Source: Planctomycetota bacterium (GTDB taxonomy: Bacteria > Planctomycetota > UBA1135 > UBA2386). From it: 64,000 nucleotides of DNA. The stretch covers positions 1,280,001-1,344,000 of the forward strand of contig OZ245838.1 of the NCBI GenBank assembly GCA_965228735.1, read 5' to 3'. Shown here piece after piece: positions 354 to 17,800 of the stretch. How positions within the stretch are numbered: the first letter of the stretch is position 1; each line of letters opens with the position of its first letter. Below the pieces are notes generated by a model, which was given only the letters and a program-made list of their open reading frames with translations, was not told the origin of the DNA and did not search any database. The translations under genes and the position numbers were made by a program.

Positions 354-438
354 GCCGGAGTGGCGGAATCGGCAGACGCACAGGTTTCAAAAACCTGCGA
401 GGTAACTCGTGCGGGTTCAAGTCCCGCCTCCGGCACCA
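354..438 (+). tRNA. tRNA-Leu(CAA)
   Basis: GCCGGAG/CTCCGGC acceptor stem, anticodon arm CAGGT-TTCAAAA-ACCTG, long variable arm, GTTCAAGTC T-loop, encoded CCA. Confidence 0.97.
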
Positions 439-440
439 TT
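386..440 (+). repeat. attL direct repeat (55 bp)
   Basis: TTCAAAAACCTG...GGCACCATT, identical to 17746-17800. Confidence 0.97.
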
Positions 441-503
441 CATTGACTGACAACGACTTACGAGCGCTTCGCGACTCGTTTGCGAGGCGGCCGGAAGCAT
501 CCC

Positions 504-524
504 GGGGGCAAATCTGGGGGCAAA
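504..524 (+). promoter_or_regulatory. Putative integrase arm-type sites (GGGGGCAAA x2)
   Basis: GGGGGCAAATCTGGGGGCAAA; near-identical tandem at 17596-17617. Confidence 0.7.
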
Positions 525-564
525 GCCCTGGCCTCACTCGGGCCCGCTCCCCATCATCCGGGGC

Positions 565-1740
565 ATGGTTGGAGCCAAGAAGAAGCGGGCCCGTCGCGGC
601 CGTTCCGCTCTTCCCTCGAACGTCGAGCAACACCGCGGCCGATACCGCGGACGGGTCATGCGCAACGGCACGACCTACCGCTCGCACACGTTCGCGACTG
701 CCGAGGAGGCGGCCGACTGGGTCGAGCACTTCGAGGAAGCGGACGCCGCGGCCGACAACGGCGCGCCGCTGTCGTTGCTCGGCGCGATGGAGCTGCTGAG
801 GCGCGAGCAGATCGCGAACGGCCTCCGCCCCGCGTCAATCGACTTCACCGAGCAGAAGTACGCGATGCTCTGCCGCGCCTGGCCGGAGTCGACCTACCTG
901 CACCGCATCGGCGCACCGCAGGTCATGAGCTACATGGTGAAGCGCCGCGAGCAGAAAGCCGGCGCGCAGACCATCCACCACGAGGTCTCGCTGCTGAAGC
1001 GACTGTTCCGCATCGGGAAGCGGTACCGCCGCCTGCAGCGCTCACCCTTCGACGACGGCGCCGTCCGGCTGCCCAAGGTTCGGAGCAAGCGCTTCGACCA
1101 CCTCCCCCGCGAGCAGCTCGACACGTTCCTCGAACGCATGCGGAACGCGGCCGGCGATGACCCGAAACGATCCTGGGAGGCCGACGTCGTCGAGTTCCTG
1201 TTCCTGACAGGCCTCCGGCGAGCCGAGCTCGCGCGCCTTCGCGTTGACGACGTCGACCCGTTCCGTGGCCAGGTCACCGTCCAAGCGAAGACGGATGACG
1301 CGCAAGTCGTGCACCTGGCCGAGCGCACGAAGCCGATCCTCGGCCGACTGATCGCCGCGGCCGACTCCGACGGCTTCTTGATCCCGACTCCGCAGAAAGA
1401 CCCGAGCAAGGTCGAGAAGTCGCGGGCCAACAAGATCACGCACATCGTCATGCGCTGGAAGGACGAGCTCGGCCTCAAGCTGCACGGCGCCGCGCACGTG
1501 CTCCGGCATTCGTACGGCACGGAGCTCGCGATGACGCCGGGCATGCCGTTCCCGCTGGCGCAGCGCAGCATGCGCCACAAGACGCCGGCGATGACCATGC
1601 GATACTTCCACGAGGCCGGCGAGAACATGCGCGCCGCGGCCGAGGCCGTCGCGAACGGCGAGGCCTTCGAACCGAACACGCCTCGAGCGAAGAAGGGCCG
1701 CAAGAAGACCGTGGCGGCGAAGAAGTCGCGTTCGGGGTAG
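565..1740 (+). CDS. Tyrosine recombinase/integrase
   Basis: TGLRRAEL (Arg), HVLRH (HxxR), MRHKTPAMTMRY (His/Tyr); adjacent to attL. Confidence 0.95.
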   Translation: MVGAKKKRARRGRSALPSNVEQHRGRYRGRVMRNGTTYRSHTFATAEEAADWVEHFEEADAAADNGAPLSLLGAMELLRREQIANGLRPASIDFTEQKYAMLCRAWPESTYLHRIGAPQVMSYMVKRREQKAGAQTIHHEVSLLKRLFRIGKRYRRLQRSPFDDGAVRLPKVRSKRFDHLPREQLDTFLERMRNAAGDDPKRSWEADVVEFLFLTGLRRAELARLRVDDVDPFRGQVTVQAKTDDAQVVHLAERTKPILGRLIAAADSDGFLIPTPQKDPSKVEKSRANKITHIVMRWKDELGLKLHGAAHVLRHSYGTELAMTPGMPFPLAQRSMRHKTPAMTMRYFHEAGENMRAAAEAVANGEAFEPNTPRAKKGRKKTVAAKKSRSG

Positions 1741-1857
1741 AACCAGTCGCGGGGCAACAGCCGCCGCTGATCACGGCGACTGGGCGAGCTCACGTTCCAC
1801 CGAGCTCGCTGCCCCTATTCACGTCAGTGATTGGTGGGACGAGCACGGAGGTGGAAC

Positions 1858-2652
1858 ATGGAGGCAAGCGAGAGGCTGTCAGACGCTGCGCCGCGACTCC
1901 TGTCAGCGTTGCGGACGTACCTTGATGCGCTTCGCGAGTACAGGACGAGTGCAAACCGGTCGGTGGACGAAGAGAACCACGTTCGGCAGCGGATCGCGCG
2001 CACCTACGAACGCGAGGCCCCACCTCCACTGGATGAGAATTCCTGGGTCGAGTACATAGCCGCGCTCCGAGCTAGAGCCGAAAGCGAAGCGAAGCCAGTC
2101 CTCGCCGCTTGGAAGCCGTTCGACCGACTGTTCCGCGAAGCGCGTACGCGGCTCGCTGGCCTGCATCACAAGCCGTGGTTCCAGCTCGGAGAGAAGGTTC
2201 ACCCAAGTGCATCCGCGGCTCTGCATGAGCTAGCGGAGTTCGTTGTTGGCGGGATTCAAACCGGCCCCGAGTGCGTGCTCAGCTGGCACAAAGGCACTGC
2301 CGACTCAAGGGATCTCCGCGTCGGTCTCGAGGTCGAGCTCGCATCGTTTGATCGCGAAGAAAGCTGCGGCATTGAGGAGACCGACGAGAAAGCGGAAGCT
2401 CAGCTTGCTCACCTCGGTGCTCGGGAGGAGGAGGTTCTTCTCGCTCTCCTCGACGCGAAGGAAAGCGGCGCTCACGGCACCAAAACGGAGGCGCTACGGA
2501 GATTGGGTGATCCGAGGCGTGCGCTGGACCGCCTTCGTACAGCTGACCTCGCCGTACAGGTCGGCAGCGGCGACTCGAAGCGTGGAGTGTGGAGGCTGAC
2601 CCCCCTCGGCGTGAGAGTGGCGGCTCTGCTCAAGACCAACCTCCGTCAGTAG
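1858..2652 (+). CDS. Hypothetical protein with C-terminal winged-helix-like region
   Basis: GGAGG before ATG 1858; C-terminus RRALDRLRTADLAVQ...GVWRLTPLG resembles a wHTH wing. Confidence 0.65.
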   Translation: MEASERLSDAAPRLLSALRTYLDALREYRTSANRSVDEENHVRQRIARTYEREAPPPLDENSWVEYIAALRARAESEAKPVLAAWKPFDRLFREARTRLAGLHHKPWFQLGEKVHPSASAALHELAEFVVGGIQTGPECVLSWHKGTADSRDLRVGLEVELASFDREESCGIEETDEKAEAQLAHLGAREEEVLLALLDAKESGAHGTKTEALRRLGDPRRALDRLRTADLAVQVGSGDSKRGVWRLTPLGVRVAALLKTNLRQ

Positions 2653-2723
2653 ATCCTCGACGGGTCGCGAGGAACGGCGAAGGCGCGCCCTCCCGATCCT
2701 TCGGCTTGCTCAGATCGCACGCG

Positions 2724-2984
2724 ATGAGCAAGCACGCCGCATCGCAGCAAGACGCCCCGTGGTGGTCTGGCGAGACCGCCATCGCTCTGGCCGATACGCC
2801 GAGGATGTTCCCGCCTCGGCCTGGCGGCGTCCCGCCCACGCTCGGGACCGTGCGCCGCTGGGTTCGCCACGGAGTGTTTGGCCTCCAGCTGCGCGTATTT
2901 GCGAACGGCCCTACCGGCCTCGCAACCACGCGCGAGGAGATCGAACGGTTCATCGCCCAGCTCAGCCTGCTCAGGGGGCTCTGA
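2724..2984 (+). CDS. DUF1580-like small HTH (excisionase/AlpA-like)
   Basis: PTLGTVRRWVRHGVFGLQL...TTREEIERF pattern; TGATG-coupled to the next gene. Confidence 0.75.
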   Translation: MSKHAASQQDAPWWSGETAIALADTPRMFPPRPGGVPPTLGTVRRWVRHGVFGLQLRVFANGPTGLATTREEIERFIAQLSLLRGL

Positions 2985-3415
2985 TGCCCCAGATCAGGGA
3001 ACTCAGCGAAGCTCGCTTGCGCGCAGCAGTCCGCCAGGCGATCGAGACCGCCATCGAGACGGACGACCCGGACGAGTTCGACTACGTGAACCTGCGGCCG
3101 ATCGCCGAGCGCGCCGGCCTGAAGCAGCGAGAGCTGCTCGCTGCTGTTCGGGCGGGCAACCTGTTCCCCGTGCTCCCTGTGACGCAGCGCATCGTCCTGG
3201 TGCGCCGGCGAGACCTTCGGGACTGGGAGGCACGAGCAGAGGTGTCAGCCGCACGCGCCGCCGCTGTCCGCGGCCACCTGGACGACCGCCCCGCCGAACC
3301 GTTCGCGGAAATGAAAGCGACCCCGACCCCGCGAAAGATGCGAGGCCAGGGCCGCATGGTTGGAGGTCGAGAGAGTAGCGCTCAACGCGCAAGCGCACGA
3401 GGGAGTCGATCGTGA
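2984..3415 (+). CDS. Excisionase-like HTH protein
   Basis: YVNLRPIAERAGLKQRELLAAVRAG...VLVRRRDLRDW; coupled start. Confidence 0.65.
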   Translation: MPQIRELSEARLRAAVRQAIETAIETDDPDEFDYVNLRPIAERAGLKQRELLAAVRAGNLFPVLPVTQRIVLVRRRDLRDWEARAEVSAARAAAVRGHLDDRPAEPFAEMKATPTPRKMRGQGRMVGGRESSAQRASARGSRS

Positions 3416-3460: not shown

Positions 3461-4966
3461 ATGCTCGACCGTAGGGCTCGCACACCCGCTCTCCGCGACC
3501 TGCTCGTCGGCCACGACCCAACGTGCTCGGCCGAGGCGACGCTAGTTCTCGCCGCGCGCGCCGCATTCGGTGGGCTGCTCGCAACGGGCAAGCCGATGCC
3601 GGGCGCAGCACCGCGCGTGCCGACGTTGCGCGAGGTTGCGGCCGAACTCGGCCTTTCGTTGGACGCGGTCCGGCGAGCCGATCACGAGCTGATCGAGCGC
3701 GGCCAGGTGTTCGTCGACGGCGCCGGCGACCGCCGAGTTTGCCCACTCGCCATGTCCATTCGGTGGTCCGACCACCGTCGCCGAGTCCGTCTGCCGGCCG
3801 TCGACCGTGAGCGTCGCATGAAGGCGCGCGCTCTGCTCCTCACTGGGCTCTTGCACGGGCAGCTGGACCGCCGCAGCGGGCGTCTCGCGCTCGGACTCGC
3901 CTACCTCGGTGAGCGGCTTGGGATGCCGCGACGGACCCTTCAACGAGCTCTCGCGGCGGCTGAGGAGGCTGGGGCCCTCCATCGCTGGACAGCGCCAATC
4001 GGACAGGGCCAACTGTTCCTGGCACCAGGACCGTCGAGAATAGGCGCACGAGATGGTTCGAGAACAGGCGCACGAGAAGGTGCTGCCTCGACGGAGTCCA
4101 ACGTCGCATCGGCCGAGCGTCGAAACGAGGCGCCGGTCGACGCCGAAAAGGGGCGCAACCCCCGTCCAAAGGAGGCGCACCCCCATGGCGAAACAGGCGC
4201 GCGAAACACGGATTGCCCTCCGGAGTACCCTCCGGATTCACCCTCGGACGCGCGCGCGCTCGCGCGCGGTCAGACCTCGCCCCTGGCTCGAGGTGACACC
4301 AGAGCACGTCGGGACCGAGAGCGGCGGCGCCAGGTGCCGGCCGACGTGCGAACGGTCGGCGGCGCATGGGCGACCCGCCTGATCAGCGATGGCCGTGAGC
4401 GGCTGGAGTCCGACGATGCACCGCAGCTCGCCGCGCTCCTCGACGCGCTCGAACCGCCCGAGTCCGACCCCAAGGTTCGCGATGCGGCGGCCGTGCGCCG
4501 GGAGCGACTGGCCTTTGCCCGCCGCGCCATCCGGTGGGAGCCGTCGCCTGAGCGCCTGGCGCGCTGGCTGGCGGTCGCGGTCCGCCGCTACGGCGTCCGG
4601 CGGGCCGGGGCCTACCTGCGACGGGCGGCCGAACGTGGCGACTCCGGCACGCTGCTCGGCCGCCGCGGCGCCGGCGGGCACGCGCTCGACCCTGATCACG
4701 AGGTCGCGCTGCGTGGACCACGCATGCGCGAGGTTGATGACATCGTCGCCGGCGGGGTGGCCGTCCTCGGTGCGCAGCTCGATGAACGAGCGCGTTTGCG
4801 GCGCGATCTGGCACACCTGCTCGACGTAGGCGACCGACCAGGCGCGCGAGTCGTTCTGCTTCGACTGCTCGGTGATCGGAGTCCAAGCGACACGCTTGCA
4901 TTGGCGCGCGCCATCGAGGGCAGCGGCGTCCCGATCACGCTCGCGCGGGAGGTCCTCGCGGCATGA
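3461..4966 (+). CDS. Putative replication initiator with two HTH domains
   Basis: PTLREVAAELGLSLDAVRRA and LGERLGMPRRTLQRAL HTHs, disordered linker containing tandem DNA repeats, GGAGG RBS. Confidence 0.6.
   Translation: MLDRRARTPALRDLLVGHDPTCSAEATLVLAARAAFGGLLATGKPMPGAAPRVPTLREVAAELGLSLDAVRRADHELIERGQVFVDGAGDRRVCPLAMSIRWSDHRRRVRLPAVDRERRMKARALLLTGLLHGQLDRRSGRLALGLAYLGERLGMPRRTLQRALAAAEEAGALHRWTAPIGQGQLFLAPGPSRIGARDGSRTGAREGAASTESNVASAERRNEAPVDAEKGRNPRPKEAHPHGETGARNTDCPPEYPPDSPSDARALARGQTSPLARGDTRARRDRERRRQVPADVRTVGGAWATRLISDGRERLESDDAPQLAALLDALEPPESDPKVRDAAAVRRERLAFARRAIRWEPSPERLARWLAVAVRRYGVRRAGAYLRRAAERGDSGTLLGRRGAGGHALDPDHEVALRGPRMREVDDIVAGGVAVLGAQLDERARLRRDLAHLLDVGDRPGARVVLLRLLGDRSPSDTLALARAIEGSGVPITLAREVLAA
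4034..4081 (+). repeat. 24-bp tandem repeat x2 (iteron-like) inside the Rep-like gene
   Basis: TCGAGAATAGGCGCACGAGATGGT / TCGAGAACAGGCGCACGAGAAGGT; partial copy near 4189-4206. Confidence 0.75.
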
Positions 4967-5205
4967 CTAGCAACCCGTCTCGAAGTGTTCTCCGCGCCCA
5001 GCTTGTGAAGGCCCTCGATCGCGGTGATCGAGCCGAAGCGGAGCGCTTGCAGGTCCTCTTGCTCGCGGAGCTGCGAGCAGCGTGTCCGAGGTCGACGCCG
5101 CGAACGAGATCGCCATTGGCAGCCAGCATGGCTTCGCGAGGCAACGGCCTACAGCGTCATCCCCTGCGCCTCGTGCCAGACATCGAGAAGGGAACAGGCT
5201 CGTGA
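4963..5205 (+). CDS. Small hypothetical protein
   Basis: ATGA and GTGA overlaps with both neighbours. Confidence 0.55.
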   Translation: MTSNPSRSVLRAQLVKALDRGDRAEAERLQVLLLAELRAACPRSTPRTRSPLAASMASRGNGLQRHPLRLVPDIEKGTGS

Positions 5206-5462
5206 TCGTCGACCCCGAACAAGCTCGTGAGCAACGCGAGGAGATGCGCCAACGCCGCGCCGACCCTGCGGTCGACGTCGCTGTGCGCCGCCGCTGGCTC
5301 GCCCTGGCGCGCACCGACGGGTACTCGTTCGAGCAGATCGCCGAGCTCGACGGCGAACCCGTGTGGCGGATCCGTGATGCGGTGCGGCTGCAGCTCGAGC
5401 TCGATGAGCGGCCAGCGGCGGAGGTCGATCGAGTGCTGGGACGAACGGAGGAAGCGCGATGA
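5202..5462 (+). CDS. Small HTH protein (sigma-70 region 4-like)
   Basis: GYSFEQIAELDGEPVWRIRDAV; coupled on both sides. Confidence 0.65.
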   Translation: MIVDPEQAREQREEMRQRRADPAVDVAVRRRWLALARTDGYSFEQIAELDGEPVWRIRDAVRLQLELDERPAAEVDRVLGRTEEAR

Positions 5463-5971
5463 CGCTCTGGCGACGACAGGCTATCGCTGAAGCGACGTTC
5501 GCGATCGCACCCGTGAGCCCATTCGTCGGGCCAGTGCTCATCGCGGTGTTGGTGGCCGAGCTGCTTCGGTGGAGAGCTCAGACGAGGATACGTGCACGGC
5601 AACAGGCTCCTGCCCCGGCCTTGTGTCCGGGCGCAACGAGGGAACGTCCCAGTCGTGCGACCGTGAGCAGCTGCGCCAACTGTGGCACGCTGTTGGAGCT
5701 CGCCGCCGAGGGAACGTGCGAAGACTGCAAGCACGGTCCGAGCGGTGACTGGATGCCGAACGCGGCATCCGAGTGCCGTGGCTGCGGCCAGATCGCTGAG
5801 TGCTCGCCGAGCCGGCTCTGCCAGTCGTGCCTTGGGCTCATGCTCACGTTCGCGCCATGGAGGGTCCACGCTCGGATGAGACGTGCGCACCGCGGCGGGG
5901 ACCACGCGGAACACCAGCTGCAGCTCGGCGTGCTGCGTTGGTCGGTCATGCCGTGGAGGGCCGGAAAGTAA
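5459..5971 (+). CDS. Membrane-anchored protein with four CxxC motifs
   Basis: Hydrophobic N-terminal stretch; CANC, CEDC, CRGC, CQSC. Confidence 0.6.
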   Translation: MTLWRRQAIAEATFAIAPVSPFVGPVLIAVLVAELLRWRAQTRIRARQQAPAPALCPGATRERPSRATVSSCANCGTLLELAAEGTCEDCKHGPSGDWMPNAASECRGCGQIAECSPSRLCQSCLGLMLTFAPWRVHARMRRAHRGGDHAEHQLQLGVLRWSVMPWRAGK

Positions 5972-6294
5972 TGCGCCTGTTCCGCGACTTCCTCTTGCTC
6001 GCGCCGGTGCGTGTGGCTCGGCGGCTATGCATGGCGAGCGCCTGCGGCCTGTCGCGCCAGTTCGGCCCAGCAAGCGCGCGACGCGAACTCGCCCTTGGGG
6101 GAGTGTGGCGCGGCAAGCGCCGCCCCTGGCCGAGCCTGACCGCGGTGCGGTCCGCTGCGAGATCGACGGGTCCCTTGTCCGGATTCGAAGTGAGTACGTG
6201 GGGGCGGGCTCAACCGCTCTCGGAGTTTGCAGCGGCCCGAAGTGGGGTTGTTGTTTCACCTTCGGGCCGACGGCCAATCGGGAGGGCTTCGTAA
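5971..6294 (+). CDS. Possible small ORF spanning the cos candidate
   Basis: TAATG overlaps at both ends; no recognisable motif. Confidence 0.3.
   Translation: MRLFRDFLLLAPVRVARRLCMASACGLSRQFGPASARRELALGGVWRGKRRPWPSLTAVRSAARSTGPLSGFEVSTWGRAQPLSEFAAARSGVVVSPSGRRPIGRAS
6166..6210 (+). other. Candidate cos packaging site (cosQ/cosN-like)
   Basis: ACGGGTCCCTTGTCCGG...TACGTGGGGGCGG resembles lambda ACGGGTCCTTTCCGG...TACGGGGCGG; lies just upstream of the terS-like gene. Confidence 0.55.
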
Positions 6295-6860
6295 TGCCGC
6301 GCCAGGCGCGCTTCGCCCTCTCGCAGGCCGATATGGCGGCGATCGTCGGTCGCTCGCTGACGACGATTCGGAAGCACATCCATGCGGGCTGCCCTGTTCC
6401 GCGTTGCCGGAGCCGCATCTTGCGCTGGGTTCGCAGCTATCACGCCTGGTGCGCTCGCAACGGAAAGGCATCGAGCGACTCTCGTGAGCCCGACTCCGAG
6501 ACTCGGCAGGTCGCGATCGAGCTGAACGGGCTGCGCAGCCAGTTGATGCAACTGGAGCTCGACAATCGCCGGTCCAGGCTGATCGAGCGGCAGGCCGTCA
6601 TCGACTACTGCGAGAGCGCTGTGCGCGCGCTGCGGGCTCGGCTCCAGACCATCCGTCGCAGGCTCTCGTCCCGCCTCGAGAACTGCACCGCCGACGAGGT
6701 CGACAGCGCGATCAGGATCGAGTTCGACGCGATGTGCGACGACTTCGCCGAGGGAATGACGGGCCATGACCCCGGCCGACCCAACGGAAAGCACGAGAAC
6801 CCTGCTGCCCCGGAACGTCCGGCGGCTGCAAGCCAACCACGACAGGACGACGAACGATGA
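6294..6860 (+). CDS. Terminase small subunit, lambda Nu1-like
   Basis: N-terminal wHTH LSQADMAAIVGRSLTTIRKHIHAGCP, coiled coil RSQLMQLELDNRRSRLIERQAV, helical C-terminus; 188 aa. Confidence 0.75.
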   Translation: MPRQARFALSQADMAAIVGRSLTTIRKHIHAGCPVPRCRSRILRWVRSYHAWCARNGKASSDSREPDSETRQVAIELNGLRSQLMQLELDNRRSRLIERQAVIDYCESAVRALRARLQTIRRRLSSRLENCTADEVDSAIRIEFDAMCDDFAEGMTGHDPGRPNGKHENPAAPERPAAASQPRQDDER

Positions 6861-7543
6861 AGAAGACGACACCCAAGCGGAGCGCGCTCGGCGCGTTCCT
6901 CGATCAGTTCCGGAAAGACCGCAGCGAACGCGGCAAGAGTGACCTCTCGCGATGGTGGGCGGTCGCTGGCGACCTGGCTGCCGGCCGGAAGCCGAAGATT
7001 TCGACGACCGAGATGGCCGAGCTCTCGATCGCCATCGACCGCCCGCCGTCCGAGCTCGAGGCCGACGTGGCCTTGCTCACGCAGCTTCACATCGCGAACG
7101 AGGCCGCCACTGGCCTCGAGAAGGCGAAGGAATCGGTCCGCGAGATGCGACGCGTGCAGGAGAAGGCCCACGCGAAGGCCGCCGAGCTCGAGCGTGAGAT
7201 TGCGCGGATCCGCGGTGAGGCCGACACGGCGCTCGAGAGATCGAAAAGCACTGTTCGCCGGGCGGAGAAGGGTGCCGAAGATGCTGCGCGACTCACCCGC
7301 GACCTGGCGAAGCGCGGACATCCGGGCAGCGTCGAGGCGATCCAGGCCCGCGAAGCAGCGGAGGAGCCCGAGCGGCTTCTCGGTCAGTTGCGCTCGCTGC
7401 GAGCTGGGGTGAACACCAGTGGGACGCAGAGCCGCAGCCAGCGAATCGCAGAGGTCACACAACGGCTTCGCGAACTCGGCGTCCCGATCCCGCCTGACCC
7501 ACGGTTCGAAACGAGCGGCGCGACCGCGGCGGAGGCATCCTGA
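6857..7543 (+). CDS. Coiled-coil hypothetical protein
   Basis: 228 aa, heptad-rich; coupled to terS and to the protease. Confidence 0.75.
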   Translation: MKKTTPKRSALGAFLDQFRKDRSERGKSDLSRWWAVAGDLAAGRKPKISTTEMAELSIAIDRPPSELEADVALLTQLHIANEAATGLEKAKESVREMRRVQEKAHAKAAELEREIARIRGEADTALERSKSTVRRAEKGAEDAARLTRDLAKRGHPGSVEAIQAREAAEEPERLLGQLRSLRAGVNTSGTQSRSQRIAEVTQRLRELGVPIPPDPRFETSGATAAEAS

Positions 7544-8892: not shown

Positions 8893-9005
8893 ACCGACTC
8901 GGTAGCTGCACCGTCGATCCGCCGCCGTGACGCCGGCGCGATCGCGCCCCGCGTTGCCGGCGCGGGTGCCCCCTCTCACCCTCAACGACAAACACGCAGC
9001 GAATC

Positions 9006-9290
9006 ATGGCACTCACCAGATCCAGGGCCCGCAAGTACGCACCGGGCGCACTCCAGGTCGACAACCTCATTCCGGTCAAGGCCGCCGCGACAATCCACGC
9101 CGGCGCGGCTCTTGAGTCGAACGGCGGCTACCTCGAACCCGCGTCCGGCGCGGGCACGTTCATGGGCTTCGCGCTGGAGTCCAACGGCACTACCCACGTC
9201 GGCGTCACGGTCGGCAAGGTGATGCGGGTCATCACCCCCGGGGTCGGCGGCCGCGTCCTCGTCTCGTTCCGGGCGCCCTGGCTGCCCTGA
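9006..9290 (+). CDS. Short capsid cement/decoration-like protein
   Basis: PVKAAATIHAGAAL...GYLEPA...FMGFALE; directly after the protease, as in phage head modules; looks internally shortened. Confidence 0.6.
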   Translation: MALTRSRARKYAPGALQVDNLIPVKAAATIHAGAALESNGGYLEPASGAGTFMGFALESNGTTHVGVTVGKVMRVITPGVGGRVLVSFRAPWLP

Positions 9291-9345
9291 CGGGCTGCGT
9301 TCCTGAGCCACGCCCGCCGCCGTCCCCCGCTCCTCGGAGACAACG

Positions 9346-11433: not shown

Positions 11434-11590
11434 GCGGCAATCGAAACTTCGTCGGAGTCGTCGTGTCCGAACTCTCGCCGGGTGCTCCTTCTTGCTTCCC
11501 CGGCTCGGAGTCGTGGCGTGTTCTCTGGTTGCCTGCGCCGGTTCGCCGGCGCGGGCTTTTCTTTCCTCGAGCTTCTGAGCTGCCAGTGCC

Positions 11591-11797
11591 ATGAACGACG
11601 ATCCCGAACCCGTCCGAGCCATCGTGCCATTCGTTCCGTTCGAGTGCCCGACCTGCGGCCGCAAGAAACCGGAGACGTACGGCGTGCATCGACGAATCCG
11701 CTACCACCGGTGCACGGCTTGCGGGATGCGGTTCAAGAGCCTGCAGGTCCCGCCTCAGGCCGTGCACGGGTTCATGCGGCCGCGGCCGCACGCGTAG
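11591..11797 (+). CDS. Ogr/Delta-like zinc-ribbon protein
   Basis: CPTCG...IRYHRCTACGMRFKS. Confidence 0.65.
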   Translation: MNDDPEPVRAIVPFVPFECPTCGRKKPETYGVHRRIRYHRCTACGMRFKSLQVPPQAVHGFMRPRPHA

Positions 11798-11916
11798 GCA
11801 CGCAAGCACCTTCGGGCAGTCTGTGACCGATCGGAGTCCAGCGGTCGGCGCTTGGCGCGGCCGTGGTCGCGCGGTCTGCCATCGCAGGAGCGACCGCGGT
11901 TCCCAGCGAGCAGGGC

Positions 11917-11945
11917 TTGACCAGGGGCAGGCCTCGCGTTGGAAT
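11917..11945 (+). promoter_or_regulatory. Putative sigma70 promoter
   Basis: TTGACC-N17-TGGAAT upstream of the 12066 operon. Confidence 0.5.
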
Positions 11946-11991
11946 CCGCGCACGTCGGCGCATCCACGTCGACCGCTCTTTCCTTCCCTCG

Positions 11992-12034
11992 AATGAAACG
12001 GCCCGCCGCGGTGTTGGACGCACCACGACGAGCC
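11992..12034 (-). terminator. Minus-strand hairpin with U-rich tail (antisense RNA end or terminator)
   Basis: GGCUCGUCGUGGUG-CGUCCAA-CACCGCGGCGGGCC-GUUUCAUU; the 14-bp stem closes only on the minus strand, using three G-U pairs. Confidence 0.55.
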
Positions 12035-12065
12035 TTGCGAACCCCCTGAGTGAACAGGAGACCGC

Positions 12066-12236
12066 ATGAGAAGTTCCGTATCCGCGCGCCGTGACGCGCG
12101 CAACGCCGCTGTGGCGGCAGAACTCGCCCGCAGCCTGTCGTGGCTGCCCCGCCGATCGATCGCGCTGCAGGCCAGCGCCAGAGCCGCCGTCGTGGACGCC
12201 CGCGGGCGTCGCGTAGCGTCGGGAGGTGAGCGATGA
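12066..12236 (+). CDS. 56-aa small protein (not in the ORF track)
   Basis: AGGAG RBS, ATG at 12066, ATGA overlap with 12233. Confidence 0.55.
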   Translation: MRSSVSARRDARNAAVAAELARSLSWLPRRSIALQASARAAVVDARGRRVASGGER

Positions 12237-12886
12237 GGGTGCAGCGATGGGGTGATCCGATTGCGTCGCCGGCAACGGAGTCGAACATCAAGGCGCCTCG
12301 CATCTGGCCGCCGTCGCGTGACGCCGAGGTTCGGCTTGTGCGCCGGGATCAGATCACCTGGGCGATCGAGTACGATTCCCGAGTCGTCGCGCTGCGCGAT
12401 GTCCTCAAGGCAGCATCGAACGACCGCGACGCCGCCGAGCACGCCAGGGCCTGGAGCGTGCTCGGTCAGCTGACCTGGTCGCAGCGCGACGTCGAGCAGC
12501 TCGTCGACGCGCTCCACGAATACCGGGATGTGAACGCCTGGGAGTTGGTGCCGCTCCTCGCGCCGCTCGCAGTCAGGCACGGCGAGATCATCGCCAGGCT
12601 GTTCCCTGATCATCTCGATTGGAGCGTGGCTGCGCTGTGTGGGCGAGCCGGCGTTGTCGCAGCAGAGCGGGAGCTGCGGAGCGGGAACCCGCATCGTCGC
12701 GGCTCAGCGATCGGCATGCTGGACGCCGCGCTGGAGACGGGCTGGCGCGCGGACAGAGCGCTCGTGCTCGAGGCGCTGGCTGTGGAGAGGAACACGGACA
12801 ACGTGGACACGCTCCAGGCTCTCGCCGACGCGCTCAAGCCGCGCGGAGAACCGAACCGGCACGATGAGGGGCACTCCGATGCCTGA
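12233..12886 (+). CDS. Hypothetical helical protein
   Basis: GGAGGT RBS, 217 aa, overlaps the next gene. Confidence 0.65.
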   Translation: MRVQRWGDPIASPATESNIKAPRIWPPSRDAEVRLVRRDQITWAIEYDSRVVALRDVLKAASNDRDAAEHARAWSVLGQLTWSQRDVEQLVDALHEYRDVNAWELVPLLAPLAVRHGEIIARLFPDHLDWSVAALCGRAGVVAAERELRSGNPHRRGSAIGMLDAALETGWRADRALVLEALAVERNTDNVDTLQALADALKPRGEPNRHDEGHSDA

Positions 12887-13148
12887 CCGCGAACCGGCCT
12901 ACATCAAGCTCGAGGACCTCGCGCACGACCTGCAGGTCGACAAGTCGATCCTCGTGCGCCGTTCTCGGCTGGGCAAGTTCGTCAAGATGACCGAGATCGG
13001 CCCCGGCATCTGGCGGATCCTGCGCACGGACTGGGACGAGTGGCTGCTCGACAACTGCACGCACAACGCCGGCAAGATCGCGGGCATCACGGCAGCTGCG
13101 GTGAACGGCACTATCCAGAACCCGCGGCCGAGGAACCGAGGCCTGTGA
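12879..13148 (+). CDS. AlpA/excisionase-like HTH
   Basis: YIKLEDLAHDLQVDKSILVRRSRLGKF...WRILRTDWDEW. Confidence 0.7.
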   Translation: MPDREPAYIKLEDLAHDLQVDKSILVRRSRLGKFVKMTEIGPGIWRILRTDWDEWLLDNCTHNAGKIAGITAAAVNGTIQNPRPRNRGL

Positions 13149-13442
13149 CCGACTTCGGCCATGACCACGAGCTACTGACGCTGGAGGAGGTCGCCGCCTA
13201 CCTCCGCGTCGACAAGGCGAAGCTCGTCCAGATGTCGCGATGCGGCAAGTTCCCAGGCATCCTCGAGATCACGACCCGCGAGAAGCGCGTGCGGCGCGCC
13301 GAGTTCGAGGAGTGGGAAAGCGGACCGCTGGAGCTCGAATGCGATCGTGCTTAGCGCGCTCACGAAGGCCGCGATCAACGGCACGCTGCCGATGAATCGG
13401 CAGGCGAACAGCCGGAACAACCGATCTCGGCGGCGCGGGTAA
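13145..13442 (+). CDS. Excisionase-like HTH paralogue with an apparent one-base frameshift near 13317 (as read, stops at 13354)
   Basis: LLTLEEVAAYLRVDKAKLVQMSRCGKFP; similarity to the upstream paralogue (TKAAINGT vs TAAAVNGT) continues in another frame. Confidence 0.7.
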
Positions 13443-13459: not shown

Positions 13460-14257
13460 TCAGCGCATGATCGCATGCGGCCCCATGAGGTAGAATTCGC
13501 TCAGGAACTTCACGAACTCCGACGCTTGGACCACAAACACGGACTGTACCGAGCCTTCAGTCCAGGATGCCAGGTCGACGATTGGCTGTGCGACGTTCGA
13601 GAAGCGCGGGAACGGTTTCTCGTAGCGCAGCCAGGGGAGCTTCTCTCCCTCTTCATCGCCGTTCTCGATCTCGCCCGTGGTGAGGTTGACCTGCCCGATC
13701 TCAAGTCGCCTGAGTTCGGCATTGGTCACGATCACTGGAATGAAAGCGAACGGCTCCTCTCTTGCCTGGAACGGCACATCGCTCATCTGAGACAGGAGCT
13801 CTGCCACGACTGAATCCAGATCGTGGTTGCCCTTTCGCTCTTCGAATAGGCAGTGCTCGGCGGCCACGTCGTGGGTTGTCGAGTTGTACTCCGCCGTAAG
13901 CAAGCTGGGCGGTCCGGGGCCGCCAGGCTGTCGATACGGCACGATGGGGGTGCGCGCCCTTCGCTGCTGGCTCTTCGATGGAGCCATGAACAGCAGTCGC
14001 ATCGGGCGTTCATGGTTCTTCATCCAGTGGCGTTTAACTTCAACTGCCATCCGCGCCCGCTCGCCGTCGCCGCCTCGATAGCGAAGCACCATGTCAATGA
14101 AGCCGTCTCCGGCAGGGACCTCCTCGGCTTCGAGCTTCCAGGGATGCTGTCCGACTTTGCCGCTTAGGCTGACCCTTCGGGCCAAGTCTCGCTGGAGCGG
14201 GATGCCGGAGCTGCATGCGCGCTTGCGGTCAGATTGCCCGCCGTTGGCCGGAGTCAT
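13460..14257 (-). CDS. PD-(D/E)XK restriction-endonuclease-like protein
   Basis: SGIPLQ...FIDMVL...AVEVKR, IPVIVTNA; ATGA overlap with the upstream gene. Confidence 0.65.
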   Translation of the reverse strand: MTPANGGQSDRKRACSSGIPLQRDLARRVSLSGKVGQHPWKLEAEEVPAGDGFIDMVLRYRGGDGERARMAVEVKRHWMKNHERPMRLLFMAPSKSQQRRARTPIVPYRQPGGPGPPSLLTAEYNSTTHDVAAEHCLFEERKGNHDLDSVVAELLSQMSDVPFQAREEPFAFIPVIVTNAELRRLEIGQVNLTTGEIENGDEEGEKLPWLRYEKPFPRFSNVAQPIVDLASWTEGSVQSVFVVQASEFVKFLSEFYLMGPHAIMR

Positions 14258-14928
14258 GGCCCGCCCCGCGATTGGGGAGATCGCTGTGCGTTGCGCTTCG
14301 ACTCGAGCGAATCGACTCCTGCGCGAAGAACCTTGCACAGCGTGCTTGCGTCGCCTTCTCCGCGGGACGATTGGAAGTCCAACGGTCCCGCGCCGACCGC
14401 TCGACCAACTTCGTCGTTGTAGCTCTGCAAGTCAGCGAAGAACGCTTGAACGTCCTCGGCGCTGTGTTGCCCGAGCAACTTGGGCTTGAGGTGAACCGTC
14501 TTGTCCAGGTGTGCTCCGAGCTTGTGTCGCGCCGGCAGAACGAGCTCGCGGTAGCGCAAGAGCCCGGCTGAGGACTGTGCCATCGACTCCGTAAACAACT
14601 GCTCGGCCTTCAGCTGTTCGTTCAGGTTGTCGACAGTCAGGCACTCCTTGCCACACACGTTCGCCGGGTCTGTCAGGCGACACACGGTGACGATGATGTT
14701 TAGGTGGAGGACCTGGTGGAGCTCATTGAAGAAGTGGAACGCCGCATCCTTGAGCAGCTCTTGCCTTCGGTCGTCGTGGTAGAGGTCGACGAACGTGTTG
14801 AAGCAGTTACGCAGCCAGATGCACTGATCGCGGAATGCGTCGAACGTCTTTCGGAGGTGTGGCGATGCTGTCACTGCTACCTGGGTGTGCGGTTGAGGCC
14901 TGGGCCGTGCGCGAGGCCGACTACTCAC
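14254..14928 (-). CDS. HEPN-domain protein, AbiU2-like
   Basis: FFNELHQVL...VCRLTDP...LTV and RHKLGAH (R-x4-6-H) motif. Confidence 0.75.
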   Translation of the reverse strand: MSSRPRARPRPQPHTQVAVTASPHLRKTFDAFRDQCIWLRNCFNTFVDLYHDDRRQELLKDAAFHFFNELHQVLHLNIIVTVCRLTDPANVCGKECLTVDNLNEQLKAEQLFTESMAQSSAGLLRYRELVLPARHKLGAHLDKTVHLKPKLLGQHSAEDVQAFFADLQSYNDEVGRAVGAGPLDFQSSRGEGDASTLCKVLRAGVDSLESKRNAQRSPQSRGGP

Positions 14929-16012
14929 AGCCCCACGTGAACTTCCGCTTGAGCTGGTTCCCGTGGCTGTGTGGCCACACCCTGTCGTGCTGCAGTCGAC
15001 CAGCCACGATTCCCGGTGCGATGCCGATCTGGTCGGCGAAAGCGGCCGCAGCTCTCTTCGAAGGCGCCGGGTGCTGTTCTCGGAACTCTTGGTACTGCTC
15101 GGGAGGGATCAGCTTGTCACGAGCGAATTCATTGGCGCGGGCTTCTACGGGGTCGTCTCCCGAGTAGGAGTGGGCGTCGTCGATGAAGATCGCTTGGGAT
15201 GAGTGCTCGAGAACGTGGCATGCTTCATGAAAGAGGCTGAACCACATCTGGTCATCAGTGCGGCCCCGAAGACTCAGGTGGATTGCGGCCCGCTTCGGCC
15301 CGAACCATCGAGTCGCTCCATTGATCGAGAGCCTGGGGAGTGACGGGGTGAACGTCAGTGCGACTCCAGCTGCCGAGCACTGCGCCACGGCCTGCTTTGC
15401 GAACTCCTTCGCGGGCAGGCGGGTCATACCGCGGATGGCGCTGACGGCTTGGCTAAAGCGCGATTCGTCGTATGGCGCGCAATCGATCTGTTGAGCGTTC
15501 AGCTCTGAGAGCCTCAACCAAGCTGTGAGTGCGTGTCGGTTGGGGTGGAAGGTCGGTGACTTTCTGAACCGGGCCGTTACTGGTGCCCAAGCGGCTTGCC
15601 ACGCGTCGGGGGTTGCCACTCCGAAGAACCGAAGCAGTGCCTCAACTCGGTCGATCGCCGCCTGGCCAACGTCAGCGACGTACCCAAAGCGAACCATCTC
15701 TCTGAAGGGGAAGGAGCGCATCCACCCCGCGAAATCGCGCAGGGCAGAGCGCTCGGCCGCGCGTTGCTGCTCGGCTCGATACGCGACCTCGAGATTCATC
15801 CAGAACGTGGCAGGGATCTGTAGGACGCGCTCCAGAAGCAATGCGGTGCTGTAGCTGAGCGTGGCCTTTGCGTTCATGACTTGGCTGACGTGCTTCTCGC
15901 TCAGGCCGGTCCGGCGCGACAGCTCCGCGCTCGACATGGAGCGTTCCTCCAACGCCTCGGCGAGAATCTCGCCGGGTGGCGACAGGTCTCGGATGTCGGG
16001 CGAGTCAGCCAT
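14921..16012 (-). CDS. higA: HigA-family antitoxin: XRE HTH fused to ImmA/IrrE-type metallopeptidase
   Basis: PPGEILAEALEERSMS...FWMNLE; WFSLFHEACH, EARANEFA. Confidence 0.88.
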   Translation of the reverse strand: MADSPDIRDLSPPGEILAEALEERSMSSAELSRRTGLSEKHVSQVMNAKATLSYSTALLLERVLQIPATFWMNLEVAYRAEQQRAAERSALRDFAGWMRSFPFREMVRFGYVADVGQAAIDRVEALLRFFGVATPDAWQAAWAPVTARFRKSPTFHPNRHALTAWLRLSELNAQQIDCAPYDESRFSQAVSAIRGMTRLPAKEFAKQAVAQCSAAGVALTFTPSLPRLSINGATRWFGPKRAAIHLSLRGRTDDQMWFSLFHEACHVLEHSSQAIFIDDAHSYSGDDPVEARANEFARDKLIPPEQYQEFREQHPAPSKRAAAAFADQIGIAPGIVAGRLQHDRVWPHSHGNQLKRKFTWGCE

Positions 16013-16328
16013 GGTAGTCGACGATTTCAGTAATTAGGACGTGCGAGATATGACCCCAGTCGTCGCCGATGGCGACCCCCGGGGCGAGAACCGGTTTGAA
16101 GATCAATCGATACGGTCCATCCAAGGACGCGGCGAAGAACCCTGCACGGTCGCCGGTCAGCTGGTGAAAGCGGCCGGGAACGTGTCGAAGAGCTTCGAGA
16201 TTCGAGGCGGCCTTGAGTGACGAGAGTCGGCGCTTCAGCTTCTCTGCGCGATCGCGCCCAAACGCCCGAAGTCGGCTTCGGGCGTCGACGCACTGCTTCT
16301 CGAGCTTTCCGTGGAAGTCGATCTTCAC
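16005..16328 (-). CDS. higB: HigB/RelE-family toxin
   Basis: PGRFHQLTGDRAG...LDGPYRLIF...EIVDYH; upstream of the antitoxin. Confidence 0.88.
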   Translation of the reverse strand: MKIDFHGKLEKQCVDARSRLRAFGRDRAEKLKRRLSSLKAASNLEALRHVPGRFHQLTGDRAGFFAASLDGPYRLIFKPVLAPGVAIGDDWGHISHVLITEIVDYHG

Positions 16329-16347
16329 ATCGGCGTTTCGATAGAGG

Positions 16348-16377
16348 ATCTTTACCGGATTGGTAAAGATGATTCAA
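16348..16377 (-). promoter_or_regulatory. higBA promoter with palindromic operator
   Basis: Perfect inverted repeat ATCTTTACC-N5-GGTAAAGAT (16348-16370) just downstream of a TTGAAT -35 box. Confidence 0.65.
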
Positions 16378-16419
16378 GCCCCAGATGCCTCAGAGTCCTG
16401 AGCGAACTGCGCGTCCGCG

Positions 16420-16992
16420 CTACCGCCCGCGCAACGGACCACCGAGCGGAGAACCGAGAAGGTCCAGCATGCGCGAGTCCCGCCTCGGCGTTTCCTCGAA
16501 CGCGACCAACCGGCCTTCCCGGTAGCCAAGGACCTTCGCAACCGTTCGCAGAAGCTCCCTCGCGAGCGCGGACTCAGCCACGCCGAATCCCCAATCGTGG
16601 TCTTCTCCTGTGATCGGGTAGACCAGGCGGCGCCGCCCCTTGTTCTCGCCGGACTTCGTCACCGTGTAGTTGCGATCCAGCCGCTGAACGGTCTCCCGGA
16701 CTGCATCGCTCTTGAGGCTCGGGTTGAGCTCGCCGAGTCCGGACTCGAGTGCTTTGTCGAGCGCCCTGCAGAGGTCGTGCCCAACTCGCTTGAGGTCCGA
16801 CTCGCTTGCACCGCAGTGCACTAGATAGGACTTCAGCACGAGCTCGATCCCGGTCCCGAGCGCCTGTAGTAAAGGCGGCATCAGTCGGTCGTCGCAACTG
16901 CGAACGAGCTGGAAGGCTGCCGCAATGTAGAGGTCACCAAACCAGAGAAACGACTCGGCTTCCTGCCAGTCTGCAGGAACTGGATCTCGCAT
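16420..16992 (-). CDS. HEPN-like protein
   Basis: GIELVLKSYL...GHDLCRAL pattern. Confidence 0.65.
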   Translation of the reverse strand: MRDPVPADWQEAESFLWFGDLYIAAAFQLVRSCDDRLMPPLLQALGTGIELVLKSYLVHCGASESDLKRVGHDLCRALDKALESGLGELNPSLKSDAVRETVQRLDRNYTVTKSGENKGRRRLVYPITGEDHDWGFGVAESALARELLRTVAKVLGYREGRLVAFEETPRRDSRMLDLLGSPLGGPLRGR

Positions 16993-16999
16993 GGCAAAC

Positions 17000-17554
17000 C
17001 TACGCGTCGCGATGGGCGTCACGGATGTCCGAAAGGTTCGCGACGGTCCCGAAGTCGAGGCGCAACAGCGCGTCGTCAAGCAAGATGGTCACAGCGTCGC
17101 GATACGTGTCGGCTTGACGGACTCCCATGACCAACTTGTTCTCGGTCTGTTGGTTGCCCTGCACCGCTCCTTCGTACCGCGCAGCAGCGGCAGTGATGGC
17201 AGCGCTGAGCAGCGTCGCCTCCCGTTGGCTCTCTGCCGCATCCGCCTGCCGCTTCAGCTCGCCCCTCGTGTCATGGAGTTCCTGCCGCTGCAGGCGTAGC
17301 TCCTCCCGCTGGAGACGTAGCTCCGTGCGTTGCAGCAGGATCGCAACCACGACGCCGGCCAGCGCGAGACCGGAGAACAGCGCGTTGACCGCGCCGAAGG
17401 CGTCACCAAGCTGCCCGCGGGCCTCGATGTTCTCGCCGAACCAAGCGAGCACCGGCACGCTGGCCAGCCAGATGGCAATGATCGCGAGCGCCAGCACAGC
17501 GAGCCGTCCCAGGGGCAGCGCGCTGCTCCCTCCGACCTGGTCGTCCTTCGTCAT
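17000..17554 (-). CDS. Two-TM membrane protein with coiled coil (resembles the N-terminus of putative Abi proteins)
   Basis: RGQLGDAFGAVNALFSGLALAGVVVAILLQRTELRLQREEL. Confidence 0.7.
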   Translation of the reverse strand: MTKDDQVGGSSALPLGRLAVLALAIIAIWLASVPVLAWFGENIEARGQLGDAFGAVNALFSGLALAGVVVAILLQRTELRLQREELRLQRQELHDTRGELKRQADAAESQREATLLSAAITAAAARYEGAVQGNQQTENKLVMGVRQADTYRDAVTILLDDALLRLDFGTVANLSDIRDAHRDA

Positions 17555-17595
17555 TACGGCAGAGTAACCAGCGCCAAACAGTCGCCTGGCCGCGT

Positions 17596-17617
17596 GGGGG
17601 CAAATCCGGGGGCAAAT
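17596..17617 (+). promoter_or_regulatory. Putative integrase arm-type sites near attR
   Basis: GGGGGCAAATCCGGGGGCAAAT, matching 504-524. Confidence 0.7.
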
Positions 17618-17745
17618 GGTCGCCGAAACTCGACCAAACTGGCCATTCTGCCCCCGCACCCCCTCTCGTCGGCGCGCTCCCAGACACCGCTTGCTGCAGA
17701 CCTATTCCACGCATTCGCAGTTGGCTTCGCTCCCCATCGGGCTGA

Positions 17746-17800
17746 TTCAAAAACCTGCGAGGTAACTCGTGCGGGTTCAAGTCCCGCCTCCGGCACCATT
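17746..17800 (+). repeat. attR direct repeat (tRNA 3' fragment)
   Basis: Identical to 386-440; lacks the tRNA 5' half. Confidence 0.97.

Follow-up and report, generated by a model that had tools for sequence, protein, structure and literature searches.

A probable phage satellite with its own small terminase, protease-scaffold and tape measure protein in a planctomycete chromosome

What kind of mobile element carries genes for terminase specificity, head assembly and tail length, and has none that can be recognised for the capsid, the portal or the large terminase? The question is raised by positions 386–17800 of a 64,000-nt stretch of a Planctomycetota bacterium chromosome (GCA_965228735.1, contig OZ245838.1, 1,280,001–1,344,000; G000:C1:1280001-1344000 in the naming used here), which is the window analysed in this work and to which all coordinates refer unless another locus is named. 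A preliminary description, made from the letters of the window, had proposed that this element is a new type of phage satellite that supplies its own small terminase subunit (TerS), protease-scaffold, cement protein and tail tape measure protein (TMP) and borrows the rest from a lambdoid helper. The evidence assembled below makes it fairly probable that the element is a satellite of lambda-like phages resembling the phage-inducible chromosomal islands (PICIs), although no helper of the proposed kind is resident and the claim of novelty has to be narrowed.

The borders of the element are clear. A perfect 55-nt direct repeat (attL, 386–440; attR, 17746–17800) consists of the last 53 bases of a tRNA-Leu(caa) gene (354–438, + strand; ARAGORN), the integration target whose 3′ part forms attL, and the next 2 bases, and it bounds a 17.36-kb insert in a complete 7.19-Mb genome of ~68% GC. 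The 391-aa tyrosine integrase (565–1740, +; PF00589, 1e-21; phrog_1, 7e-40) is 68% identical to that of a 7.7-kb relative, L037, at the same tRNA. Two tandem AlpA/Xis-type HTH_17 genes (~12873–13148 and ~13160–13354, +; PF12728 1.7e-7, PF09035, phrog_66), with uncertain starts and products 43% identical to each other, lie towards the other end. Integrase, Xis-type genes and att pair together show an integrated island with the predicted means to integrate and excise, and both the intact att pair and the integrase had been correctly recognised in the preliminary description. Genes were called from open reading frames (ORFs) and third-position GC content (GC3); at 68% GC long chance ORFs are common and open frames mean little, and weight was given only to ORFs with homologues or family matches. 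The 29 ORFs of the element were scanned against Pfam and PHROGs, and PADLOC was also run. An antisense 483-aa ORF (4967–6418, −) was rejected as a gene: its GC content is flat across codon positions (0.67/0.69/0.68), it matches no family, and it is most likely a chance ORF.

The interior of the island shows what appears to be one operon, in which the only virion-assembly genes are accessory ones: terS, a coiled-coil gene (cc228), an S49 protease with a scaffold-type tail, a cement gene and a TMP gene. TerS (188 aa; 6294–6860, +) matches phrog_57 (5.7e-13, profile positions 11–171 of 199), which is also matched by the TerS proteins of a full prophage in genome G013 and of L037. The 228-aa coiled-coil protein cc228 (6857–7543, +) is coupled to both neighbours by start/stop overlaps, at 6857/6860 and at 7543. 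The 449-aa S49 head-maturation protease (7543–8892, +; phrog_53 1.4e-77, PF01343 4e-28) is followed after 114 nt by a shortened capsid decoration (cement) protein of 94 aa (9006–9290, +) and, after a further 56 nt, by a 695-aa TMP (9346–11433, +; PF10145, PF09718 and 20 PHROGs, 16 of them TMP or tail families). A terminator-like hairpin with a T run (11531–11566, +; 11 pairs, 10 G-C) lies after the TMP gene, the total number of such sites in the element being not above that in shuffled sequences; a promoter scan of the element found none. Upstream of terS, a 322-nt non-coding gap (5972–6293) contains short TGGCGCG-type repeats and a 10-bp hairpin (6233–6269), and by its position is a candidate cos or pac region. 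The preliminary description had read much the same late block here, and its coiled-coil, S49/scaffold, cement-like and TMP labels stand, as does the coupling it had noted at the two overlaps, beyond which the genes are separated by the gaps given above; its TerS was correct in kind, the gene being 6294–6860 and not the whole ORF 5883–6860.

The retained late genes look whole. The S49 protein aligns end to end with its counterpart in the G013 prophage at 44% identity (its nearest homologue is 48% identical), and the catalytic residues Ser154 and Lys206 and the DSPGG motif are kept both here and in L040, a related island described below. Its C-terminal motif, W..E[WF]...L.AEF...Y.A[FY].R, occurs once, as in the phage S49 proteins, and by analogy with scaffold proteins would be the capsid-binding end. 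In a quick tree of 36 rows, the S49 proteins of the element and of L040 fall within the phage clade (SH-aLRT 100). A second S49 gene in G000, considered as a possible prophage gene, proved to be of the cellular SppA type and lies amid acyl-CoA dehydrogenase genes. The 94-aa protein aligns to both ends of a 141–148-aa family whose gene succeeds that for the capsid in five related phages; the N-terminal 60 and C-terminal 32 residues are kept, and ~54 central residues have been lost in frame. An alternative account of this ORF, as a fusion at a deletion joint, was discarded on the same alignment, which indicates an internal deletion. A model of the full-length family (predicted local distance difference test, pLDDT, 87) finds structural matches among capsid decoration or cement proteins, at the top those of cyanophage Pam3 (8hdt_G, E 3e-4), phiCD508, HFTV1, T1 and TW1, with lambda gpD further down. 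The TMP is of phage length (695 aa versus 642–713 aa in phage TMPs), and the 669-aa TMP of the G013 prophage matches it over 590 aa with 27% identity.

The coiled-coil protein is the one member of the block with no phage counterpart. No homologue of cc228 was found in Pfam, PHROGs, PADLOC, a search of 5.8 billion proteins or the Atlas, and none was found in nine phage loci, even with a hidden Markov model (HMM) of cc228 paired with a 235-aa protein encoded upstream of S49 in L040. The latter is of similar size and collinear, with a weak 32% identity; the Smith–Waterman score of the pair is 161, against 69 ± 8.6 in 300 shuffles (z 10.7), none of which reached it (0/300). These comparisons suggest that the two coiled-coil proteins are likely to be homologous. 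A complex prediction for cc228 with S49 scored 0.00, a value that carries no weight either way.

As the preliminary description had stated, the remaining virion genes cannot be recognised. In the 29 ORFs, Pfam and PHROGs gave no match to capsid, portal, TerL (large terminase subunit), tail tube, holin, lysin or lysis families, and tblastn with proteins of related full prophages at E<=0.5 found none of these genes in the element either, nor any fragment of capsid, portal or TerL. The same family searches gave no match to a tail assembly chaperone, head-to-tail adaptor or stopper, no structural search having been made for the chaperone.

Replication appears to be provided by a gene of plasmid type. 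The product of rep501 (501 aa; 3461–4966, +) yields only weak winged helix-turn-helix matches in sequence libraries. Its model (seven family members) comprises two winged-helix domains in residues 1–190 (pLDDT ~90), a disordered stretch (192–292) and a helical C-terminus, and Foldseek matches of the N-terminal half are the initiators RepE54, Rep 8ac8 and pi (2nra), with modest scores (probability 1.0, E values of 4e-3 to 0.14, target template-modelling score ~0.48). Iteron-like repeats, comprising a 24-nt tandem repeat and scattered AGGCGC motifs, lie within rep at approximately 4022–4200, in the DNA that encodes the disordered stretch, and the related islands L033, L035, L036, L037 and L040 have iteron arrays in the corresponding part of rep. 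Paired winged-helix domains and iterons are the features that the modelled protein has in common with RepE/pi/TrfA-like initiators. The Rep-like label given earlier is supported by the fold and not by sequence families. These findings support a RepE/pi-like initiator whose likely origin lies inside its own gene, with iteron binding as a prediction, and the island in this way shows putative means for its own replication. No primase or helicase was matched among the ORFs of the element in Pfam or PHROGs.

To place the late genes, their arrangement was compared with that in full phages. Phage-type S49 genes (E<=1e-30) occur at nine loci in 8 of the 339 genomes of the order. The complete lambda-like prophage of G013 has the order TerS (phrog_57), TerL (phrog_15), Zn ribbon, a ~1150-aa protein, portal and S49, followed by the capsid (309 aa, phrog_371), cement, connectors, tube, TMP, distal tail genes and a J-like protein. 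S49 is followed by a capsid gene (~308 aa) and then cement in all five loci with downstream sequence (G013, G002, two in G031, and G029); two further loci (G042, G094) are cut downstream and have a portal gene upstream. Among the nine, portal and capsid are both missing beside S49 only in the element and in L040 (genome G085). A wider base rate came from the best 80 of 570 confirmed S49 loci in metagenome contigs, 43 of which have at least 2.5 kb after S49. For 36 of these 43 a capsid gene could be recognised in the first 2.5 kb, in 12 cases with an HMM built on the family capsid and in 24 through PHROG 'major head protein' matches, and none was recognised in the other seven (L062, L090, L091, L107, L114, L115 and L116), most of which have unassigned ORFs of 260–559 aa there. 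At one of them, L114 (5868–10290), genes for a primase and a DnaB-like helicase come after the S49 homologue and take the place of a capsid gene. A TMP was found downstream of S49 in eight metagenome loci, never closer than 3460 nt as against 454 nt in the element, with a TMP HMM that is narrow and likely to miss some. An S49-only scan of genome contigs added one distant locus.

The lambda-like prophages of the host's bacterial family (G013, L023 + L024; G002, L025; G031, L026 and L027) are the source lineage of the late genes: TerS belongs to the same PHROG, and identities to the element are 35–44% for S49, 35–58% for the N-terminus of cement, 24–27% for TMP and 27–45% for the Zn ribbon. Together these prophages have the full virion set, most completely in G013, including TerL, a protein of roughly 1000 aa, portal, capsid, connectors, tube and J-like tip, and they have neither cc228 nor the Rep of the element. 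Of the genes that complete such a phage, from TerL, portal and major capsid protein to those for tail tube, tail tip and lysis, none was recognised in the element. The order of what it retains also differs, insofar as its Zn-ribbon gene (68 aa, four Cys; 11591–11797, +) follows TMP, whereas in the four full-phage loci that cover the TerL region the corresponding gene follows TerL. L040 has the order rep, S49, TerS, and a further relative, L038, has a portal before TerS. As annotated, these orders cannot come from the full-phage order by deletion alone, because S49 precedes TerS in L040, the portal precedes TerS in L038 and the Zn ribbon follows TMP in the element.

The Rep protein proved to mark a family of islands. 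A Rep family profile is matched in 12 of the 339 genomes of the order, all 12 being among the 91 of the host's bacterial family and none among the 248 elsewhere; with the single Rep protein as query, 11 of the 91 were matched. HMMER with Rep retrieved 62 representatives at E<=1e-30 among 1.84 billion, and phage and plasmid collections gave no match. Nine contexts were examined, comprising L033 in G000 and 8 of 15 places outside it; those left out are short or partial contigs (G105:C32, G114:C807, G005:C158, G062:C147, G002:C383 and G109:C32), and G001:C12 was counted once. Five further members have att pairs and sizes of 7.7–15.7 kb (L033, L036, L037, L038 and L040), L034 and L035 run to contig ends, and L039 and L041 have no att pair within 20 kb.

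The bordered members differ in what they add to integrase and rep. L033, a sister island in the same genome (G000:C1:6934288-6942615, locus positions 4288–12615; 8.3 kb, 48-nt att with 47/48 identical, tRNA-Gln(ttg)), has an integrase, a rep that is 48% identical to that of the element and contains four iterons of 24 nt, and some eight ORFs without Pfam or PHROG match, and no match to a phage-like virion gene. L037 (7.7 kb, perfect 52-nt att, tRNA-Leu(caa)) carries the 68%-identical integrase, rep, a phrog_57 TerS, a Zn ribbon, a homologue of the 217-aa protein of the element and an AlpA/Xis gene. L040 (15.0 kb, att 50/51, tRNA-Phe, with a different integrase) encodes the 235-aa coiled-coil protein, S49 (phrog_53 1.3e-56, PF01343), a TerS 35% identical to that of G013, a Zn ribbon and a PIN protein, and has no capsid, portal or TerL match. 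Its S49 C-terminal motif is present three times, as a 159-nt tandem duplication (L040 11234–11551). Three copies of the same motif, without a protease domain, make up a 169-aa protein of L035 (7709–8218; 35% identity over 142 aa to the C-terminus of the L040 S49), which also has int, rep and a 701-aa TMP (PF09718). L038 (G001:C12 456–15327; 14.8 kb, 28-nt att) has a T7-type portal (PF12236, 2e-94), an Sf6-type TerS, DprA-like and Lar-like genes and no TerL or capsid gene, and L036 (G084:C16 4053–19795; 15.7 kb, 46-nt att) has rep, a neck/tail-completion protein (phrog_169), a 1142-aa tail protein (PF23666, PF13550) like those of gene transfer agents and a Phd antitoxin; immediately beyond the att site of L036 there is another integrase. 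The G013 capsid, portal and TerL have no match in any small island (tblastn, 1e-3). The element is therefore not a one-off deletion, the outcome that, together with a lack of purifying selection, the preliminary description had named as fatal to its proposal: it belongs to a family of small, att-bounded Rep islands, one of which repeats the coiled-coil, S49 and TerS genes without a capsid, and the other such outcome, a hidden capsid, portal or TerL among its ORFs, did not materialise either.

Against these supports for a satellite stand a number of observations that weigh the other way. The complete genome G000 has no match to GpA-type TerL (PF05876), TerL_ATPase (PF03354), portals of PF04860 or PF05136 and PF05065 capsid, tblastn of the G013 head and tail proteins against it finds nothing, and its sole resident prophage region (G000:C1 ~1887000–1918200) differs in type, having a T7-like portal and a TerL of the Terminase_6N family; the co-resident lambdoid prophage that the preliminary description had suggested looking for is thus absent. 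Rep alignments find no relative in viral contigs or metagenome contigs, and so give no sign of the family in virus-particle data. Within the family, rep is broken by a TGA stop in L038, a partial Rep relative sits in L039, a seemingly full prophage (TerS, TerL, portal, capsid), and the virion genes vary from none in L033 to TerS in L037, portal and TerS in L038 and neck and tail-tip genes in L036, a spread that is also as expected from random decay of phages sharing Rep. The similarity of cc228 to the L040 protein is weak, and by BLAST it depends on direction (E 2.6e-5 one way, 3.5 the other). The branches of the two S49 proteins, that of the element and that of L040, are long (1.01 and 2.49, where the median is 0.49), and the tree does not resolve the pair as sisters; for the cement gene, a loss that stays in frame would arise without selection in one case out of three. 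Finally, excision, replication, packaging and transfer are steps that we infer from sequence. Elsewhere, a lambda-like prophage is present in the same genus (G002, L025), and the hosts of L040 and L037 have no second phage-type S49. As to the resident prophage region of G000, it also holds a capsid-like match, an Sf6-type TerS and a homologue of the 808-aa protein of the G013 phage, and its Terminase_6N TerL is ~19 kb away on the other strand.

Several of these points would equally suit a defective prophage remnant, that is, a lambda-like phage with this Rep at tRNA-Leu that in several deletions has lost everything from TerL to portal, the capsid gene, the block from connector to chaperone, and the genes for the distal tail and lysis, and whose late genes are undecayed and unexpressed. 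The missing helper in G000, the broken rep of L038, the Rep relative in L039, the internally deleted cement gene and the very different virion-gene subsets of the family members all agree with such a history. So do the relationships of the late genes, all recognisable ones being closest to full prophages of the same bacterial family (27–58% identity) and, apart from cc228 and the Zn ribbon, arranged in phage order; and the perfect attR suggests a recent insertion, so that intact ORFs are no proof of selection. However, a remnant would require at least four separate deletions, each clean at gene borders and leaving coupled start and stop codons behind, and in addition the presence of cc228, which lacks a phage counterpart, and a move of the Zn-ribbon gene. 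In L040 an S49 gene without a capsid gene again lies beside a similar coiled-coil gene, in an order, S49 before TerS, that is beyond deletion. The five further bordered members are all of 7.7–15.7 kb with int, rep (broken in L038) and both att sites, the retention of Rep being a matter of ascertainment by the Rep search, and no capsid, portal or TerL fragment was detected in the element even at E<=0.5. We therefore regard a remnant as unlikely, if by no means negligible.

A different role for the same genes would be that of a decoy or defence island, in which phage-derived TerS, scaffold-protease and TMP, carried by an iteron-replicating element, spoil the packaging, head and tail of lambda-like phages and packaging of the island itself is unneeded. 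The defence-type cargo (PD-Lambda-2_B-like at 9e-37, AbiU2 and HigB-like) would be in keeping with this, as would the tripling of the S49 C-terminal motif in L040 and L035, which would suit competitive binding of capsid protein, and the sister island L033, in which the backbone exists independently of virion genes. Satellite or defence proteins that block tail assembly through TMP are known (Rta, in the accessible text of PMC12987554). Yet TerS has no obvious use as a decoy unless the island has its own packaging site, and the catalytic residues of S49 have been kept. Moreover, interference and own transfer go together in PICIs and in PICI-like elements (PLEs), so that this explanation overlaps with that of a satellite; as a separate account it seems to us improbable. 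The interpretation of the preliminary description, then, is supported in part: the lack of recognisable hidden head genes and the existence of a family favour its satellite, no lambda-like helper is resident, and its claim of novelty has been overtaken.

Taking the element as a PICI-like satellite, a sequence of events may be envisaged. Infection by a lambda-like helper, or its induction, would lead to excision and replication of the island, whose TerS would steer the large terminase of the helper to island DNA. The S49 protease-scaffold, perhaps with cc228, would join or redirect the assembly of the helper capsid protein; the island is about one-third of a 40-kb phage genome, for which a smaller shell would suit, and its cement protein would decorate that shell. 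Helper tails would take up its TMP, in the manner of PLEs, and the opposite-strand cargo (AbiU2, a HigB-like protein and a PD-Lambda-2_B-like protein with HTH and M78 domains) would repay the host by defending it against phages. PLEs redirect head assembly with an external scaffold, TcaP, whereas CpmB of the Staphylococcus aureus pathogenicity islands copies the capsid-binding end of the helper scaffold. The idea of a competing scaffold, as in CpmB, matches the scaffold-type S49 of the element. More tentatively, the whole family might be a lineage of iteron-replicating, tRNA-integrating satellites, maybe restricted to the host's bacterial family, whose members bring differing accessory virion parts (protease-scaffold with single or tripled motif, free three-motif scaffold, trimmed cement, TMP, portal or tail-tip) and form chimeric particles with helper capsid and tail proteins, the element being on this view the first satellite shown to hijack head assembly by a complete S49 prohead protease-scaffold without a capsid gene of its own; as a joint proposal this is possible but doubtful.

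How, then, does the element compare with the satellites already known? In the accessible text of the SatelliteFinder study (PMC10085698), the PICI core consists of an integrase, an alpA/merR/stl regulator, a primase-replicase, TerS and a gene for capsid morphogenesis, and genes for tails or holins are forbidden. By homology the element has three of these five (integrase, AlpA-type regulator and TerS), with an analogue or candidate analogues for the other two. Regulation is represented by its two HTH_17 genes, in which regulator and excision roles are not separated; the iteron initiator replaces the primase-replicase as a functional analogue, not a homologue; and S49, cc228 and cement are candidate analogues of capsid morphogenesis genes. 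Size, att integration, own replication and TerS, cargo and the absence of capsid, portal, TerL and lysis genes are likewise shared with PICIs. The differences are that the TMP breaks the ban on tail genes (no holin or lysin was matched), that the capsid-acting genes are a complete S49 protease-scaffold and a cement protein, and that the host lies outside Proteobacteria and Firmicutes, which according to the same text account for >99.9% of predicted PICIs; a serine protease is 'occasionally' present in PICIs (PMC10085698). Overall, the architecture and logic of the element are PICI-like; what it adds is a replication initiator of the iteron type, a full S49 protease-scaffold, a cement protein that has been trimmed, a TMP and a host group so far unexplored.

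Other satellites approach it in single respects. The EPIPs of Mycolicibacterium aichiense are described in the accessible text of a 2025 preprint (PMC12822802) as having TerS, scaffold and TMP, small heads and long tails, and no tail or lysis genes; that text lists a major capsid protein among EPIP genes, yet also says that capsid proteins are lacking. The element is likewise small, with TerS, a scaffold-bearing protease and TMP, but EPIPs have a serine integrase, a head-to-tail adaptor and a stopper and, in that text, no mention of a protease, whereas the element has a tyrosine integrase and no adaptor or stopper match; the host phylum differs too, and the likeness is one of gene content as described. 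PLEs of Vibrio cholerae encode their own TMP with a chaperone and form chimeric tails, deletion of tmp cutting transduction by 96–99%, and putative tmp genes are noted in PLE-like elements and some capsid-forming PICIs (PMC12987554, Nature 2026, and its Extended Data Fig. 10, as far as accessible). A satellite-encoded TMP is thus common to PLEs and the element; in PLEs the TMP comes, according to the same text, together with a chaperone and often with a baseplate hub. They use a large serine recombinase and depend on a myovirus as helper, and the element has a tyrosine integrase and no recognised chaperone. Capsid-forming PICIs are, like it, small islands with a phage-derived head protease and TerS, but by the description in PMC10085698 they carry capsid, portal, TerL and head-tail adaptor or connector, all of which the element is without. 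P4-like satellites use Sid/Psu/Delta, the alpha primase and epsilon, and no Pfam or PHROG match of these kinds was found in the element. VEIMEs, integrative mobile elements that are encapsidated in virions, have TerS homologues and some serine proteases (PMC9618062, accessible text).

These precedents overtake the claim in the preliminary description that no known satellite is defined by protease-scaffold plus TMP without a capsid: in the texts as accessible, a TMP is present in PLEs (PMC12987554), TerS, scaffold and TMP in EPIPs (PMC12822802) and a protease occasionally in PICIs (PMC10085698). Among the papers listed by a literature search, none deals with a satellite that has an S49 protease and no capsid, and none with satellites in Planctomycetes. 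Should the element be a satellite, it would extend satellite biology to a new host group. Its full protease-scaffold would be a third head-hijacking route, after external scaffolds and small internal scaffold mimics, with relatives in which the motif is triplicated, and the TMP would be an independent case of satellites bringing their own. The rep gene offers a simple marker for finding the whole family. The meaning of all this is drawn from comparison of sequences alone.

The opposite-strand cargo occupies 13460–17659 (−) and has a lower GC content (0.62–0.63) than the genome. It comprises a 292-aa ORF (o292, 13460–14338), genes for AbiU2-HEPN (14254–14928), an HTH+M78 protein (14921–16012; PADLOC PD-Lambda-2_B) and a HigB-like protein (16005–16328), a 219-aa ORF (16420–17079) and a DUF6082-like ORF, also of 219 aa (17000–17659); family matches in this segment are PF18734 (1.4e-15), PF01381 with PF06114, and PF05015 with phrog_3066. 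The HigB-like, HTH+M78 and AbiU2-HEPN genes (14254–16328, −) overlap end to end. They may form one three-gene defence system.

The remaining ORFs are less readily assigned. A 273-aa ORF (1831–2652, +) without family match and with a weak coding signal (GC3 0.69) is possibly a regulator; an ORF of L036 resembles it at 29% identity over 180 aa. Upstream of rep, the small ORFs o131 and o218 (2589–3415, +) are conserved only C-terminally (~2730–2984 and 2981–3415); the C-terminus of o131 has paralogues in G000 and resembles the ORF preceding rep in L033, and that of o218 is 53% identical over 72 aa to L037. Directly after rep come a 126-aa ORF (5082–5462, +), without family match and 33% identical over 99 aa to the post-rep ORF of L038, and a 170-aa Cys-rich ORF (5459–5971, +), again without family match. 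The Zn-ribbon protein, which had been labelled Ogr-like, has only weak zinc-finger matches and none to an Ogr/Delta family in Pfam or PHROGs, and the label is dropped; it is 40–52% identical to small genes adjoining TerL in the four full prophages and to genes in L037 and L040. A 217-aa helical protein (12233–12886, +) resembles, at 31% identity over 196 aa, the product of an ORF that adjoins the AlpA/Xis-like gene of L037, and has a weak HEAT-repeat-like lead in the Atlas (0.93).

Public sequence data contain the element repeatedly: ten runs from several studies contain at least half of its sampled words, none of those with the element being listed as RNA data, and in runs X2, X3 and X4 it forms a single Logan contig of 17,365 nt with 0 differences to the window. 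Its depth there (window 411–17775) against the two flanks is 12.6 versus 12.3/12.9 in X2, 28.9 versus 23.7/19 in X3 and 7.04 versus 3.6/3.0 in X4, values that cannot tell integrated from excised copies, Logan contigs merging the att repeat and having one mean depth each, and of which the excess in X3 and X4 is too weak for extra copies. In an empty-site comparison, the flank of the insertion site was only ~74% identical in same-genus genomes, with unclear synteny. Past the end of the window, at L044, a TerS-like fragment (4116–4343; G000:C1:1348116-1348343) shares 39–40% identity with the Sf6-type TerS proteins of L038 and L039, and at 7320–7538 (G000:C1:1351320-1351538) there is a paralogue of the small ORF preceding rep; these features may belong to another small element or remnant.

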